DNA from: a virus
Taxonomy: Duplodnaviria > Caudoviricetes
DNA length: 64,000 nt
Virus record (IMG/VR): IMGVR_UViG_3300029319_000001
Reading direction: 5' to 3' (one strand)
In this document: piece after piece, positions 2,038 through 48,870 of the stretch
How positions within the stretch are numbered: the first letter of the stretch is position 1
How the letters are laid out: each line of letters begins with the position of its first letter
Translations under genes and position numbers: made by a program
The notes under the pieces: generated by a model
The model's database searches: none
What the model was told of the DNA's origin: nothing
What the model saw: the letters and a program-made list of their open reading frames with translations, nothing else

Positions 2038-2681
2038 TAGAATATCTTTTTCCTACTCCTTTCTATAAAAATAATATTCCCTGCCCTAAAAAAGAATGGG
2101 ATAGTATGATGGATGTCTGTGAAAGATTTTATAATAAAAATATACAAGAGATCAATGATTGTGGAAATTTTACAGGTGATCAAGACATACCAGAGTTCTT
2201 TTTGTTACATACCACAGAACAATTCTATTGGTTAAACTATCATATGGGTCAGGCAGTTAAAGAATATCTAAAAGAAATTACTGATGATGAAGACTATTCT
2301 GTTTTCTTCCAGAAATCATGGCCGAATGTGACTAGATTAGAGGATGGTGGTAATCCAAATCATTACCATAAAGGATCTCATTTTAGTGGAGTCTATTATC
2401 TTAGAACTGAGGGAAGTGGAGGAACTTTAAATCTTCAAAGCGGTAATGAGATGGATATGTTACCATTAAATTTAAAACCACACCTAGGAATATTTCAATT
2501 CAATCCTGTAGATGGTGATCTAATTGTATTTCCATCTAGTGTAATGCATAATGTTAGAGGTTTTTCTGGATCACATTATAGAGCATCTATAGTGTATGAT
2601 ATATTCATTACATCTTCAGAGACAGTTGATGATCGTTATGAAAACATTGTTACATCACCACATTTATGGGTAAGAGTATGA
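2034..2681 (+). CDS. 2OG-Fe(II) oxygenase, TIGR02466-like
   Basis: LFPTPFY start, HYHKGSHFSGVYYL, GDLIVFPSSVMHNV; start chosen at the ATGA overlap. Confidence 0.75.
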   Translation: MIEYLFPTPFYKNNIPCPKKEWDSMMDVCERFYNKNIQEINDCGNFTGDQDIPEFFLLHTTEQFYWLNYHMGQAVKEYLKEITDDEDYSVFFQKSWPNVTRLEDGGNPNHYHKGSHFSGVYYLRTEGSGGTLNLQSGNEMDMLPLNLKPHLGIFQFNPVDGDLIVFPSSVMHNVRGFSGSHYRASIVYDIFITSSETVDDRYENIVTSPHLWVRV

Positions 2682-3247
2682 TTGCTAAAGTATACGACAA
2701 CTTATTTTCTCCTGCATTTGTAGCAACTACAGATGAGATGGTGTTTAATCTACCTGTTTCATGTACCAATGAAGCAAATGGTAAACGCTATCCTGATGGT
2801 GGAGGTGGCACTCATAGATTATTTGGTGAAAATTTATTTGAAAGAATTAGTGTCAATACAATTACAAACTGGTCACCTAAAGCACCTGTGTTTTTTAATA
2901 TGCTGCGACATATTGAAGAGGTAACAGAGACAACATATTATTTGTCAAGGATAGATCTAAATTTACAGCATTCTTTTTGTGATGGTAGTGCCCATGTTGA
3001 TGGTGATGTTAGTAATTCAACCATTATGTACTTCTCAAATTGCCAATGGAAAAAAGAGTGGGGTGGTCAGTTCCAAATACTTGATGGACAACATGGTAAT
3101 GTTATAGAAGAGCATGAGTATGTGCCTGGTAGAGTTGTTATTTTTCCATCTAATTACTGGCATAGAGGTCTAGGACCTAGGCATCCATATGTGTATAGAT
3201 ACAGTATAGTATGGAGAGTAACTGCAGTTGACAGCATTGATTTATGA
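2678..3247 (+). CDS. 2OG-Fe(II) oxygenase
   Basis: HVD, WKKEWGG, PGRVVIFPSNYWHRG, YRYSIVW. Confidence 0.8.
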   Translation: MIAKVYDNLFSPAFVATTDEMVFNLPVSCTNEANGKRYPDGGGGTHRLFGENLFERISVNTITNWSPKAPVFFNMLRHIEEVTETTYYLSRIDLNLQHSFCDGSAHVDGDVSNSTIMYFSNCQWKKEWGGQFQILDGQHGNVIEEHEYVPGRVVIFPSNYWHRGLGPRHPYVYRYSIVWRVTAVDSIDL

Positions 3248-19925: not shown

Positions 19926-19956
19926 AAGGATTGCGTGGGTTTCCTCACAAAATAAA

Positions 19957-20081
19957 CTGCTCCCAACCAAGACCTCTGTAGGCAGTATAATACTTCGTCT
20001 TTTATCCAAGAGTAGAAGGGATTCTTGGAAATATGTTTCGCATCTAACCCTTGATGCCCTACATACAAATCGTCTTTTTAA
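19957..20081 (+). ncRNA. psbA leader RNA, PhotoRC-II-like
   Basis: Long psbA 5' UTR with CTGC/GCAG, CCAAGA/TCTTGG and GCATC/GATGC stems; family inferred from position and memory. Confidence 0.6.
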
Positions 20082-46831: not shown

Positions 46832-47595
46832 CAAGAATATTAGTTACAGGACATAAGGGATTCATAGGCAACTATGTCTTCAATCACCTTAGACATGATG
46901 CAGGTTACGGATACTTAGTTGATGGCATGGATTTTCCTGATGACATTGGGGATTTCAAGTCAGAGATTAGTATGTTTGATAAACCTTATGATTACATCAT
47001 ACATCTAGCAGCATTTGCTGCCATCAGAGAGAGTGTAGATAATCCAGATAAGTTTTGGGAAAATAATGTAGAAAAATCTAAACCTATCTTTGATTATTGT
47101 AAGAGATACAATACTAGATTACTTTATGCTAGTTCAGCACAAGTAGAAGAGTGGTGGCAAAATCCTTATGGTATTACCAAGAAAGTTAATGAACTACAAG
47201 CACCACCTAATAGTGTGGGGATGAGATTCCAGACAGTATATGGAGAAGATAGCAGACCTGATATGCTATTCAGAATGTTGCAGGATAATACAGTTAAATA
47301 CATTACCAATCATAAAAGAGATTGGATTCATGTTAAAGATGTCGCTAGAGCAATTTGTTATCTAATGTCTAGTAAATATACTGGAACTATTGACATAGGG
47401 ACAGGTGAGACTACAACTGTTAAAGAGTTAGCAGAAGCATTTGGTTATGTTGATCTACCTGTCAAAGATAGTACACCAGGCGAAAGAGACATCACATGTG
47501 CCGACACCACTGCCTTGCGTGAGTTGGGTTGGTTTCCTAGAGAAAAAGTGTTAGAATGTATTCCTGAGGGAAAACCGAACTCTTTTTTCAGATAA
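46828..47595 (+). CDS. NAD-dependent epimerase/dehydratase (WcaG-like)
   Basis: LVTGHKGFIG, HLAAFA, YASSA, NPYGITK, RDWIHVKD. Confidence 0.85.
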   Translation: MTRILVTGHKGFIGNYVFNHLRHDAGYGYLVDGMDFPDDIGDFKSEISMFDKPYDYIIHLAAFAAIRESVDNPDKFWENNVEKSKPIFDYCKRYNTRLLYASSAQVEEWWQNPYGITKKVNELQAPPNSVGMRFQTVYGEDSRPDMLFRMLQDNTVKYITNHKRDWIHVKDVARAICYLMSSKYTGTIDIGTGETTTVKELAEAFGYVDLPVKDSTPGERDITCADTTALRELGWFPREKVLECIPEGKPNSFFR

Positions 47596-47643
47596 TCGGG
47601 AAAAAAATCTCCGCAAATTTTTTGAGCCACAGGATTTTCAAAA

Positions 47644-47811
47644 ATGCTATCAGCAAAACAAAGAATGAAACTTATTGACATTTGCGTTGAAATCGTAAAT
47701 GGAAGAACAGTTACTTTAGATGATATGATCTGGGCAGAGAAATTAGCAAAATATAATAGTCACGCATATAAAATGTTAAAGGAGTCAAGAGAGAATATTA
47801 AACCCCTGTAA
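47644..47811 (+). CDS. 55 aa hypothetical protein (absent from ORF track)
   Basis: MLSAKQRMKLIDIC...DDMIWAEKLAK; paralog of 55161..55463. Confidence 0.6.
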   Translation: MLSAKQRMKLIDICVEIVNGRTVTLDDMIWAEKLAKYNSHAYKMLKESRENIKPL

Positions 47812-47832
47812 ACCGTATCAAAATATACGAGG

Positions 47833-47861
47833 TTGCATTATAAATAGTTATGTGTTAGAAT
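47833..47861 (+). promoter_or_regulatory. Sigma70-type promoter with a late promoter inside its spacer
   Basis: TTGCAT-17 nt-TAGAAT with TATAAATA at 47839-47846. Confidence 0.65.
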
Positions 47862-47871
47862 TAACATACAG

Positions 47872-48100
47872 CGTTCATCCGATGCACAACCTCGCTCTTT
47901 TGGCATTGATCCTCGCTGAACATAACGCTTCCCACTGGGAAATGTCATGTGCAGAGTGGAACCAAAACAGAATTGAGATACTTACTAATAAGAATCTTAA
48001 CTCTGATGCTCAAGAGTACCTTATAGATTACTTTAGAACAAAAGTGCCAGAAGAAAATTGTGAAGCGTTTATCATCGGACGCAAGTAAGTCGCGGAACGG
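47872..48100 (+). ncRNA. Glutamine-II (Downstream-peptide) riboswitch-like aptamer 1 with ORF in P2 loop
   Basis: P1 CGTTC/GAACG, P2 TCCGATG/CATCGGA (7 bp perfect), CGCA junction, GGAACGG. Confidence 0.72.
47882..48088 (+). CDS. 68 aa signal-peptide protein nested in aptamer 1
   Basis: MHNLALLALILA...CAEW...CEAFIIGRK; the track's 47852 start lies inside the predicted promoter. Confidence 0.65.
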   Translation: MHNLALLALILAEHNASHWEMSCAEWNQNRIEILTNKNLNSDAQEYLIDYFRTKVPEENCEAFIIGRK

Positions 48101-48102
48101 AG

Positions 48103-48298
48103 CGTTCATCCTATGTACCACATTCTGCTTAGTCTAATAGCAATAGGAGCACCACTTGATTGTGACCATGCTGCTGAACTATTAGAAGATGTAACTAACA
48201 ACCCTAATAGATCTGAGAGATTGGAACTAACAAGAGTTATAGTTGCACATACTGATCCAGCATGTTTTCCAAAGGACGCAAACGACTAAAGGAACGGG
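48103..48298 (+). ncRNA. Glutamine-II riboswitch-like aptamer 2 with ORF in P2 loop
   Basis: P1 CGTTC/GAACG, P2 TCCTATG/CAAAGGA (6 of 7 bp), CGCA, GGAACGGG. Confidence 0.75.
48113..48289 (+). CDS. 58 aa signal-peptide protein nested in aptamer 2 (absent from ORF track)
   Basis: MYHILLSLIAIGAPLDCDHAAELL...DPACFPKDAND. Confidence 0.6.
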   Translation: MYHILLSLIAIGAPLDCDHAAELLEDVTNNPNRSERLELTRVIVAHTDPACFPKDAND

Positions 48299-48329
48299 CT
48301 TTAAATCCAACTACTTTAGGAGAACTTAA

Positions 48330-48455
48330 ATGGCACAAGTCACTTACCGTGGTGTTGTCTATGACACCAACAACCGCCCAAATCAAGCAAAAACACAGAA
48401 AGTTACTTTAACTTATCGTGGAATAAAGACTGAAAAGGATCTTACTACTGCTTAA
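48330..48455 (+). CDS. DUF4278-family small protein (41 aa, absent from ORF track)
   Basis: MAQVTYRGVVY...LTYRGIK (two TYRG motifs), AGGAG SD at 48318-48322. Confidence 0.85.
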   Translation: MAQVTYRGVVYDTNNRPNQAKTQKVTLTYRGIKTEKDLTTA

Positions 48456-48478
48456 TCTGGACATCTTACACATTGATC

Positions 48479-48508
48479 AAAAAGAGGGTTACAGAAACCC
48501 TCTTTTTT
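48479..48508 (+). terminator. Rho-independent terminator
   Basis: AAAAGAGGGTT-loop-AACCCTCTTTT plus T run. Confidence 0.8.
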
Positions 48509-48527
48509 ATAAATTATATTAAAAGCT

Positions 48528-48692
48528 ATGGATCGCCAAGTTTTAAAAGGCATGGTTTTAATGCTCAAACAAGTTGTAACAGAATTGGAAGCAGAGGTTT
48601 TTTCTGATAAAGAAGCGTATGTTCCAAAACAACCAGCAACAATGAAACAAGATTATGAACTCTACGATGATGACGATGGATACTCAGATTAG
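48528..48692 (+). CDS. 54 aa hypothetical protein
   Basis: MDRQVLKGMV...ELEAEVFSD...DDDDGYSD. Confidence 0.55.
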   Translation: MDRQVLKGMVLMLKQVVTELEAEVFSDKEAYVPKQPATMKQDYELYDDDDGYSD

Positions 48693-48870
48693 AGAGAAAA
48701 CTCTAAAACTGCTTTTAAAGAATTTTGGCAATACTCATACAAATCGTTCGATTTACGAATGTGCCGATGATTGGTGTTCCAAGCAACCAACAACCAAAGG
48801 ACTAGTAGCATATTTTAATGCATACTACGGAAAACATGAAGGACAAGAAAGCAGCAAAAAAATTGATTAA
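48676..48870 (+). CDS. Hypothetical protein
   Basis: SIYECADDW motif; start approximate. Confidence 0.5.
   Translation: MDTQIREKTLKLLLKNFGNTHTNRSIYECADDWCSKQPTTKGLVAYFNAYYGKHEGQESSKKID

Follow-up and report, generated by a model that had tools for sequence, protein, structure and literature searches.

A probable interlaced double glutamine aptamer holding two small genes in its hairpin loops in the leader of a T4-like cyanophage

Riboswitch aptamers are treated as compact, contiguous domains of 5' leaders, and their genome-wide counts are obtained with covariance models that assume this arrangement. In the locus described here, selection retains a known ligand-binding core although its stems reach across 150-430 nt and enclose real genes. 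It lies in a 64,000-nucleotide stretch of a caudoviral genome (IMG/VR record IMGVR_UViG_3300029319_000001), the whole of which is called the window below, and all features discussed are on its + strand. The initial annotation had described a split motif occurring twice, at 47872-48100 and 48103-48297, and exact matches were found at precisely these coordinates. Within the window, the 5' half CGTTCATCC has exactly two copies, both on the + strand and starting at 47872 and 48103, and the 3' half (GGACGCA-N10-GGAACG) also has exactly two, at 48077 and 48274, with a chance expectation of 0.13. A scan of genome contigs with the 3'-half pattern returned, among the matches listed, only single chance matches in unrelated taxa, and the split motif was found again in more than 100 cyanomyovirus contigs, where the one core takes two forms, either with a short P2 hairpin or with an insert of 140-240 nt holding an intact ORF. 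We consider it probable that 47868-48510 is a single transcription unit of a T4-like cyanophage, with a leader that forms an interlaced double glutamine aptamer carrying two protein genes in its hairpin loops. We regard as demonstrated that the helices exist and covary, that the genes are real and that a covarying anti-SD helix is present. No description of such a layout, with genes inside an aptamer, was found in the accessible literature.

The identity of the core was addressed through its compact natural homologs, which scored 35.0-43.6 bits on the type 1 glutamine riboswitch model RF01739 (cut-off 35), while one of them, L073, reached 34.0 bits on RF01704 (cut-off 33). The intact window region gave no glutamine match in Rfam, either at the gathering cut-off or at E <= 10, and 15 other ORF-bearing loci gave none. 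Since the compact homologs do score, the missing match in the window is attributed to the inserts, through the model window and insert penalties. When the loops of the window array were collapsed, it matched 55 of the 55 invariant columns of the compact arrays. The P1 strands CGUUC/GAACG, followed by an unpaired A, are present twice in the window, as are the CGC linking strand (48080-82 and 48277-79) and the GGAACGG strand (48094-100 and 48291-97); the E-loop strands around P3, AAGUA in J2/3 and AAAG in J3/1, are found only in the outer of the two cores described below. In glutamine-II RNA, a CGC linker and a GGAACGG strand are joined by the long-range pair C19:G41, and the ligand contacts described for it (C1:G40, the G18>G2:C39 triple and C19:G41) have counterparts in both cores (PMC6698751). 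On this comparative basis the core is that of a glutamine riboswitch, as had been proposed from the window alone, and each copy would be expected to bind L-glutamine like its solved relatives.

The core combines traits of two known systems. With the type 1 glutamine riboswitch (glnA RNA, RF01739; the Synechocystis gifB leader) it shares P1 CGUUC/GAACG with its bulged A, a P2 beginning with U-A, C-G and C-G, a J2/3 ending in AAGUA, P3, a J3/1 of the form [AG]AAG, a DUF4278 gene downstream and an anti-SD in the 3' side of the aptamer. However, the linchpin pair is C:G in the phage (CGC...GGAACGG) and G:C in type 1, the phage P3 forms no hairpin and opens instead, as a helix, into a second, permuted core, and P2 closes a gene-holding loop of 188 nt in a window that obtains no Rfam score. 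With type 2 (Downstream-peptide, RF01704; marine picocyanobacteria) the shared traits are the CGC linking strand, the C19:G41 pair, the GGAACGG strand, the position before short DUF4278 genes and the same hosts. In contrast, the H-type pseudoknot of type 2, with its P2 helix 3' of GGAACGG, appears not to be conserved in the phage arrays, and in its E-loop halves and P3 the phage RNA follows type 1. A proximal UAAAG/CUUUA helix is possible in the window (48287-91:48299-303), is weak in S-SKS1 and is aligned by Rfam in L073, but with the SD flank and with P3 the UAAAG strand forms better, covarying pairings.

P2a is formed by UCCGAUG (47878-47884) and CAUCGGA (48073-48079), with 7 of 7 base pairs, and P2b by UCCUAUG (48109-48115) and CAAAGGA (48270-48276), with 6 of 7; reading the sequence bore out the pairing originally assigned to both. 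The initial annotation had also suggested looking for P2 covariation in related phages, and this was found among 111 unique ORF-bearing units, in which pairing was counted in register by script. In these units P2 positions 1-5 are paired in 99, 100, 98, 88 and 88 % of cases, position 4 occurs as four pair types, none of 2000 shuffles of the partners equalled the observed pairing, and sliding the register left 2.3-4.1 pairs of 7 compared with the 5.7 observed. Compensatory changes also occur inside clusters of closely related ORFs, and the P2 helix of the compact units covaries too. In the window, the unconstrained MFE contains P2a (pair probabilities 0.63-0.998), and P2b has a pair probability of 0.77 when unit b is folded alone. 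Cross pairing of P2, between the 3' strand of unit 1 and the 5' strand of unit 2, was considered and rejected, as within-unit pairing wins 36 to 10. RNAalifold on 22 full-length slot-1 units (alignment A1) recovered only the long-range CGUUC/GAACG helix; the absence of P2 from this consensus is explained by MAFFT gaps that broke its register.

These observations bear on the view that the motif halves are relics, or separate local signals such as translation, RNase or protein sites, placed around a duplicated gene cassette, so that no aptamer forms across the ORFs and only the compact arrays sense. A helix closing over 150-190 translated nucleotides is kinetically unfavourable, there is no Rfam match in the window, and the free-energy minimum predicted for the whole array relies in part on other pairs. 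However, the P2 strands flanking the ORFs stay paired through compensatory changes, some of them within closely related clusters, all invariant core nucleotides of the compact arrays are retained, and ORF-bearing arrays preserve P3 and the anti-SD. Moreover, GGACGCA falls in different reading frames in ORF1 and ORF2 and is kept in both, so that conservation of the repeat is at the level of nucleotides and not of peptide. ORF-bearing arrays also form the majority of phage arrays (86 of 108), and the relic view is accordingly judged quite improbable.

How the two units pair with each other was a separate matter. The initial annotation had read them as back-to-back aptamers, each with its own CGTTC/GAACG P1. 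In such a tandem fold the P1 helices would be 47872-76:48095-99 and 48103-07:48292-96, and the two aptamers would sense glutamine separately. Identical P1 strands allow the window to pair in this way; Rfam aligns lone compact units, and glnA RNAs are called 'in tandem' in an earlier report (PMC2864571). The P1 strands are invariant in 105 of the 108 arrays, so that the choice between a nested and a tandem fold comes to depend on P3 covariation and on one compensatory variant. This variant occurs in the other three arrays (L036, L046 and L083, perhaps the product of only one or two events), where P1 strands have changed on both sides together: CAACG now stands in the 3' half of unit 1 and CGTTG in the 5' half of unit 2, while the outermost halves are still CGTTC/GAACG. 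The joint change indicates that the P1 partners are crossed, since the tandem fold would place C.C and G.G mismatches in these loci and crossed pairing is perfect. Judged from these comparisons, outer P1 is formed by 5'a CGUUC (47872-47876) with GAACG (48292-48296), and inner P1' is a local hairpin at 48095-48107, composed of GAACG (48095-99), the loop GAG (48100-02) and CGUUC (48103-07).

The second line of evidence is the helix shared by both units. P3 pairs AGUCG (48088-48092) with CGACU (48283-48287) and appears across arrays as AGUCG:CGACU, AUUCG:CGAAU, AGUCA:UGACU, GGACGG:CCGCCC and 8-bp forms, with three pairs changed on both sides in alignment A2. This covarying a:b helix lies 1 nt from the 3'a strand and is thus incompatible with a P1 closed inside unit a. 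The E-loop halves are likewise split, AAGUA being confined to unit a and [AG]AAG to unit b, and the linker between the units, at 3-6 nt throughout and 3-4 nt in nearly every array, is as long as a hairpin loop. Of the cells in the nested model, 96.6 % pair, and 10 pairs show two-sided changes, a level reached by 0 of 500 shuffles; RNAalifold on 21 compact arrays predicted the nested fold together with the P1' hairpin, and the tandem fold is less favourable than the nested one by 2.4 kcal/mol. The tandem arrangement may exist as an alternative conformer, but as the selected structure it is considered unlikely. All 108 arrays are a+b pairs (cB 54, BB 23, cc 22, Bc 9), and this obligate pairing, the covarying a:b helix and the compensatory swap together point to one interlaced double sensor. 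The fully nested fold, built from four P1 strands, a pair of P2 helices and a single P3 common to both units, is considered probable as part of the same judgement as the transcription unit. Against it, the free-energy minimum joins 5'a to GGACGC (48274-79) and not to 3'b, in a structure 6 kcal/mol below the nested fold.

In the fold so proposed, the outer core would consist of P1, P2a with ORF1 in its loop, J2/3, P3 and J3/1 AAAG, arranged around both genes and resembling a type 1 three-way junction, but with the C:G linchpin pair of type 2. Outer J2/3 CGCAAGUA (48080-48087), made up of the CGC linking strand (48080-82) and one E-loop half, AAGUA (48083-87), aligns to the RF01739 consensus CGGAAGUA and is overlapped by the ORF1 stop codon UAA. 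The last element (48288-48297, Rfam consensus GAAGGAACG) contains J3/1 AAAG (48288-91), the outer P1 3' strand (48292-96) and G48297, the partner of C48082. P3 would then open into the inner core, a circular permutation of the same aptamer that begins with the P1' hairpin, continues with P2b and its ORF2 loop and ends with the J2/3 linker CGCAAA (48277-48282), which includes a CGC linking strand (48277-79); its predicted partner is G48100 in the P1' loop.

Strand exchange of this kind is known from the crystal of glutamine-II, a strand-swapped dimer (PDB 6QN3) in which C1-C5 pairs with G36'-G41' of the partner and which has been regarded as an artefact (PMC7357161). The exchange of P1 strands is as inferred between units a and b; however, the crystal contains two molecules, whereas in the phage the exchange would occur within one RNA and be the selected state, which makes the crystal 'artefact' a probable natural design. 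'Tandem' glnA RNAs of marine metagenomes, for which Weinberg et al. 2010 proposed a more digital response, have two cores 2-5 nt apart, as here, and are probably the same objects as the compact cc arrays, although crossed pairing, a shared P3 and loop genes do not appear in the accessible portion of that paper (PMC2864571).

Both P2 loops (188 nt and 154 nt) hold an intact ORF, as had been noted, and the ORF list confirmed this. ORF1 (47882-48088; 68 aa; PHROG 6471), in the P2a loop, starts from an ATG within P2a, and ORF2 (48113-48289; 58 aa; PHROG 504), in the P2b loop, belongs to the same two-cysteine family. The placement of each ATG in the 5' strand of P2 (47882-84 and 48113-15) and of each TAA in the junction before a P1 3' strand, in CGCAAGTAA (48086-88) and CGACTAAAGG (48287-89), agrees with the original description. 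A GGAG at 48099-48102, in the region of the inner P1' loop, is the likely SD of ORF2. One could suppose that the inserts are untranslated, structured RNA expansions of P2 with incidental open frames, given that ORF1 lacks an SD and has a leader of only about 14 nt, and that the proteins match no Pfam family and no fold in the PDB. This is very improbable. Among the 111 unique inserts, 107 are intact and open from an ATG at a constant place; codon-position differences in the loop ORFs (695/449/1330 at positions 1/2/3) and synonymous versus non-synonymous changes (838 versus 384) show excess third-position and synonymous change; and two cysteines are invariant across proteins with 12-40 % identity. 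The proteins also fall in PHROG families, an AF2 model has a mean pLDDT of 78.5, and the GAG-type linker goes with an ORF in unit b, being found in 48 of the 76 arrays that have one and in none of the 29 that do not. The loop ORFs are thus, by their pattern of substitution and conservation, real genes of one two-cysteine family, and every copy of this family found in an HMM search of the loci and four complete genomes sits inside aptamer loops. In the Atlas, the nested proteins matched viral hypothetical clusters only.

Translated ORFs in the loops of structured RNAs have precedents. Group I and group II introns carry ORFs (homing-endonuclease genes) in peripheral loops of ribozymes, and the Salmonella mgtA Mg2+ leader contains the leader ORF mgtL, encoding a 17-codon regulatory peptide whose translation alters the fold of the leader. 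Like the phage leader, these systems show a structured RNA that tolerates or uses a translated ORF in a loop; unlike them, the phage has conserved-family genes of 50-70 codons in the ligand-binding aptamer itself.

The gene led by the sensor RNA is the DUF4278 gene at 48330-48455, which encodes an IF17-like 'YRG' peptide of 41 aa (PHROG 5049). Its match to PF14105 (48330-48452; 32.0 bits, cut-off 25.3) supports the earlier statement that the core precedes such a gene, and a first census found a YRG-motif ORF after 104 of 113 arrays. An action on glutamine synthetase has been doubted even for short Prochlorococcus homologs of DUF4278 (PMC6212724). An anti-SD strand, CUAAAG (48286-48291), overlaps P3 and J3/1 and pairs in the unconstrained MFE with the complementary SD flank CUUUAG (48314-19), the element at 48314-48322 also including the overlapping SD of the gene, GGAG (48319-22). 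In 88 of 98 unique leaders, a 6-mer fully complementary to the anti-SD lies 9-12 nt upstream of the ATG. Judging from this covariation, the anti-SD in the 3' end of the sensor masks the DUF4278 ribosome site and competes with P3 and J3/1.

Taken together, these elements suggest a mechanism. The ligand-bound fold would release the DUF4278 ribosome site and act as an ON switch, following the precedent of gifB (PMC6212724). In the same fold P2a and P2b would bury the start codons of ORF1 and ORF2, and the P1' loop would hide the ORF2 SD, while ribosomes initiating or terminating on the nested genes would occupy strands that the fold requires, and translation of these genes and formation of the sensor would therefore be mutually exclusive. 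The result could be a reciprocal switch, in which an open sensor yields the small two-cysteine proteins and a closed one the IF17-like peptide. Termination at either UAA might open the following ribosome site, in a relay from ORF1 to ORF2 to DUF4278. As about 425 nt must be made before the cores are complete, sensing would act on translation and not on transcription. It is plausible that glutamine level and ribosome traffic are coupled. The broader proposal, of a natural riboswitch with cores built from strands flanking translated genes, mutual exclusion of ribosome occupancy and glutamine sensing, a reciprocal switch with an operon relay, a gene family confined to loops and an underestimated use of riboswitches by phages, is put forward as a tentative one. 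The locus offers a testable system in which translation and aptamer folding meet on one mRNA, set in the infection of the phototrophs that are most abundant in the ocean, at the point of balance between carbon and nitrogen metabolism. A survey in 2017 recognized no more than two glutamine aptamers among cyanophages and took riboswitch use by phages to be rare (PMC5473149), a conclusion that needs revisiting given the proportion of arrays that bear ORFs. These arrays escaped Rfam in every case tested and would represent hidden sensors; if so, sensors that evade covariance-model searches have led to phage riboswitch use being underestimated.

RNA-library contigs from three studies cover 47932-48595 exactly and end at 48473 and 48595, although, being contigs only, they cannot prove a transcript and show no transcript ends, strand or level. 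The flanks were empty or nearly so at 47354-47893 in all three runs and at 48596-48703 in the deepest run. A promoter and terminator scan listed neither a + strand promoter nor the terminator. By eye, a putative intrinsic terminator was recognized at 48483-48508, with an 8-bp stem (48483-90:48496-503), the loop ACAGA and a T run, and a promoter-like site at 47833-47861, consisting of TTGCAT (47833-38), a 17-nt spacer and TAGAAT (47856-61), with 8 of 12 positions as in the sigma-70 consensus. A T4-late-like TATAAATA lies within this spacer, at 47839-46. In 81 of 103 related leaders, a promoter-like site matching at least 9 of 12 positions ends 7-11 nt (mostly 7-8) before CGTTCA, a spacing which suggests a transcription start at the first P1 strand or immediately before it.

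The window genome is a T4-like cyanophage, with Prochlorococcus phages P-HM1, P-HM2, and MED4-213 as the nearest records for the array region (~81% identity), and its sole Rfam match at the gathering cut-off is a PhotoRC-II RNA (RF01717, 56.6 bits) at 19945-20042 on the plus strand. The split motif reported twice by the initial annotation was recovered: the 5' half, CGTTCATCC, occurs exactly twice on the plus strand, at 47872 and 48103, and the 3' half, GGACGCA-N10-GGAACG, has two copies, at 48077 and 48274 (chance expectation 0.13). Its P2 pairings also hold, with 7 bp in P2a (47878-84:48073-79) and 6 of 7 positions in P2b (48109-15:48270-76), as do the intact plus-strand ORFs it placed in the two loops, ORF1 (47882-48088, 68 aa) in the first insert and ORF2 (48113-48289, 58 aa) in the second. 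Since GGACGCA is read as GGA-CGC-A in ORF1 vs G-GAC-GCA in ORF2, the repeat is kept as RNA and not as peptide. The small flanking ORFs, 47644-47811 and 48528-48692, belong to PHROG 507 and PHROG 878 (function unknown) and are units separate from the array.

Searches of the window array for a glutamine riboswitch gave no Rfam match even at E ≤ 10, and none of the ORF-bearing arrays tested was detected by Rfam. Natural compact arrays serve as a "collapsed loop" control. Unit 1 of phage S-SKS1 reads CGTTCA-TCAGAG-GAAA-CTCTGA-CGCAAGTAAGTCGCGGAACGG, with a short natural P2 hairpin and a 3' half identical to that of the window, and aligns end to end with the type 1 glutamine riboswitch RF01739 at 25 bits (cut-off 35). 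Among 120 loci retrieved by an IMG/VR pattern scan with the 3' half, compact units reached 35.0-43.6 bits against RF01739, and a compact unit scored 34.0 bits against the type 2 (Downstream-peptide) model RF01704 (cut-off 33). With both window loops scripted to tetraloops, the array matched 55 of the 55 invariant columns defined on 21 natural compact arrays. The window linker, CGC, corresponds to the C17-G18-C19 strand of the solved glutamine-II aptamer, and the 3' strand, GGAACGG, supplies the counterpart of its C19:G41 pair (PMC6698751). The proposed riboswitch core is borne out by these matches, and the expected downstream gene is present at 48330-48455, encoding DUF4278 (32.0 bits, cut-off 25.3), a family under glutamine riboswitch control in cyanobacteria (PMC6212724).

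When the spacing between CGTTCA and the 3' half was tallied over the 120 loci and four named phages, unique units fell into two classes, 74 compact ones with 10-30 nt and 111 large ones with 140-240 nt. An ORF is contained in 107 of the 111 large units, its ATG lying 9-11 nt (rarely up to 21) past the C of CGTTCA and its stop confined to a few places (CU[AG]AAGG, CGCAAGUAA, or UAGGA). The covariation of P2 that the initial annotation called for was found across phages. Positions 1-5 are paired in 99, 100, 98, 88, and 88% of large units, through C-G (90), U-A (12), and U-G (7) at position 3 and C-G (54), U-A (26), A-U (8), U-G (8), and G-C (2) at position 4; sliding the register lowers 5.7 pairs of 7 to 2.3-4.1, and no partner shuffle out of 2000 paired as well as the real helix. 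As kinship inflates such counts, the check was repeated within clusters of close ORFs, where two-sided changes appeared at position 4 in three clusters and at positions 3, 5, and 6 in others. In the window, P2a belongs to the unconstrained minimum-energy fold of 47868-48335 (pair probabilities 0.63-0.998), and P2 closes in each separately folded unit (0.99 and 0.77). In some a-type compact units (loci L013, L017, L019, L030, L041, L102, and others) the U-A closing pair of P2a is A-U (CGTTCA-ACC...GGT-CGC) or G-C (CGTTCA-GTC...GAC-CGC), and unit b closes with C-G in L072 and L107 (CGTTCA-CCCC), the former ending GGGG-CGC.

The loop ORFs are genes. Substitutions between related ORFs number 695/449/1330 at codon positions 1/2/3, and codons with a single difference are synonymous in 838 cases vs 384 non-synonymous. 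BLASTP joins all but one into a single family, in which two cysteines are invariant (alignment of 35 diverse members); the window proteins fall in PHROG 6471 and PHROG 504. An AF2 model of a loop protein is a helical hairpin (pLDDT 78.5) with no matching fold in the PDB. The family HMM found 109 copies over 978 kb of phage DNA, every one within arrays, and the complete genomes of P-HM1, P-SSM4, S-SKS1, and P-RSM4 hold 2, 2, 1, and 2 copies, all loop genes. In all arrays, the C-termini and stops (GRK*, DAND*, DAKAD*; window stops 48086-88 and 48287-89) are encoded by invariant aptamer nucleotides, and part of each protein is therefore dictated by the RNA.

Two tandem aptamers, each with its own CGTTC/GAACG P1, had been proposed, and this arrangement was not borne out. 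In a relaxed census, each array is a pair of distinct unit types, a before b, with loop states (c, compact; B, gene-bearing) cB in 54, BB (the class of the window array) in 23, cc in 22, and Bc in 9; 86 of the 108 arrays in this sample are of the hidden, ORF-bearing kind. Unit a always carries CGCAAGUA without GAAG, and unit b always [AG]AAG without AAGUA, so the type-1 E-loop is split, half per unit. The unit-a segment past AAGUA complements the unit-b segment preceding [AG]AAG, giving a helix P3 (48088-92:48283-87) with sequences AGUCG:CGACU in the window, AUUCG:CGAAU in P-RSM4, and AGUCA:UGACU or GGACGG:CCGCCC elsewhere; the end pair of 8-bp forms varies among U:A, A:U, and G:C. Unguided RNAalifold on the 21 compact arrays returned a nested fold, in which the 5' P1 strand of unit a pairs with the 3' strand of unit b (5'a:3'b), 3'a and 5'b form a hairpin, and both P2 close. 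With P3 added, 96.6% of cells are paired, two-sided changes occur in 10 pairs (3 within P3), and none of 500 shuffles equaled it. The P1 strands are nearly invariant among arrays, but L036, L046, and L083 carry CAACG in 3'a and CGUUG in 5'b with 5'a still CGUUC and 3'b still GAACG, a swap that is compensatory for crossed pairing only, since a tandem arrangement would leave C.C and G.G mismatches; this variant decides the matter in favor of crossed P1. Because a single nucleotide separates P3 from 3'a, P3 and a P1 formed wholly within unit a are mutually exclusive. The linker between 3'a and 5'b never falls outside 3-6 nt and in nearly all arrays measures 3-4 nt, matching a hairpin loop in size. 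In the window, the nested fold beats the tandem one by 2.4 kcal/mol. Swapped pockets are sterically possible because the glutamine-II aptamer crystallized as a dimer with P1 strand exchange (PMC7357161), exactly that of the nested array. The array is very probably a nested, interlaced double core, with an outer core (P1 47872-76:48292-96, P2a, P3) and an inner core (hairpin P1' 48095-99:48103-07, P2b).

On the plus strand, an anti-SD, CUAAAG (48286-91), overlaps P3 and J3/1 and forms a helix with CUUUAG (48314-19), a segment that overlaps the SD GGAG of the DUF4278 gene (48319-22); the free-energy minimum includes this helix. Among 98 unique leaders, 88 have a fully complementary 6-mer 9-12 nt upstream of the ATG; CUAAAG is partnered only by CUUUAG or CUUUGG, CUGAAG by CUUCAG/UUUCAG (G:C) or CUUUAG (G.U), and CCGAAG by CUUUGG in 3 of 5. 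As this covarying anti-SD overlaps P3 and J3/1, sensor folding and SD masking are alternatives, which fits the ON switch demonstrated for gifB (PMC6212724). An SD-like GGAG lies in the P1' loop of 48/76 arrays with a unit-b gene vs 0/29 with a compact unit b. In 81 of 103 leaders, the end of a sigma-70-like promoter precedes CGTTCA by 7-11 nt (mostly 7-8), indicating that the RNA begins at the sensor; the window promoter (TTGCAT-17-TAGAAT, 47833-61, plus strand) is weaker than in related leaders. Its spacer contains a T4-late-like TATAAATA (47839-47846, plus strand), and TAAATA/TATAAATA occurs there in 53/103 related leaders, which suggests that the array may be transcribed in the late as well as the early phase of infection. 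A plus-strand terminator was recognized by eye at 48483-48508, downstream of the DUF4278 gene. In three studies, RNA-library contigs are identical to the window over 47932-48595, with coverage empty or nearly so at 47354-47893 (all three runs) and 48596-48703 (deepest run) and none over the 47644-47811 ORF, a pattern consistent with a discrete expressed unit, although contigs cannot prove a transcript.

Judging from these comparisons, both cores are likely to bind glutamine. The bound fold would free the DUF4278 ribosome site and bury the ORF1 and ORF2 start codons and the ORF2 SD, while ribosomes on the nested genes would block the sensor fold, and their termination at 48086-88 and 48287-89 would open the next initiation site. 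Because neither core is complete without sequence downstream of ORF2, sensing would start only after ~425 nt are made, and with completion so late it would act on translation. What the comparisons establish is the gene content, the anti-SD helix that competes with the sensor, and, very probably, the fold; a reciprocal or relay logic is a possibility raised tentatively. Glutamine riboswitches and their DUF4278 link (PMC6212724) and their occasional presence in cyanophages (PMC5473149) were already known, as were "tandem" glutamine RNA copies (PMC2864571); a 2017 survey counted just two cyanophage glutamine aptamers (PMC5473149). In line with the initial annotation, which knew of no gene-in-aptamer layout, the searchable literature yielded no protein genes inside aptamer loops, no gene family confined to them, and no crossed, shared-P3 double core.

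Other elements adjoin the arrays of related phages. In P-SSM4, a manA RNA (RF01745, 184 bits; L002 366-551, 164829-165014 of AY940168.2) precedes the glutamine array by ~90 nt and is overlapped by the annotated "hypothetical protein" PSSM4_169.1 (L002 421-594); Rfam gave no manA match in the window. On the minus strand of L046 (~2531-3100, strand coordinates), the 3' strand past unit b reads GGAACGAC, followed by a hairpin and a further CGTTCATCCCAT, and the DUF4278 gene is replaced by a 180-aa ORF with many cysteine pairs (MRQCSKCSEYKP...HLDHILP...), which looks like a putative HNH-type endonuclease inserted at the array.
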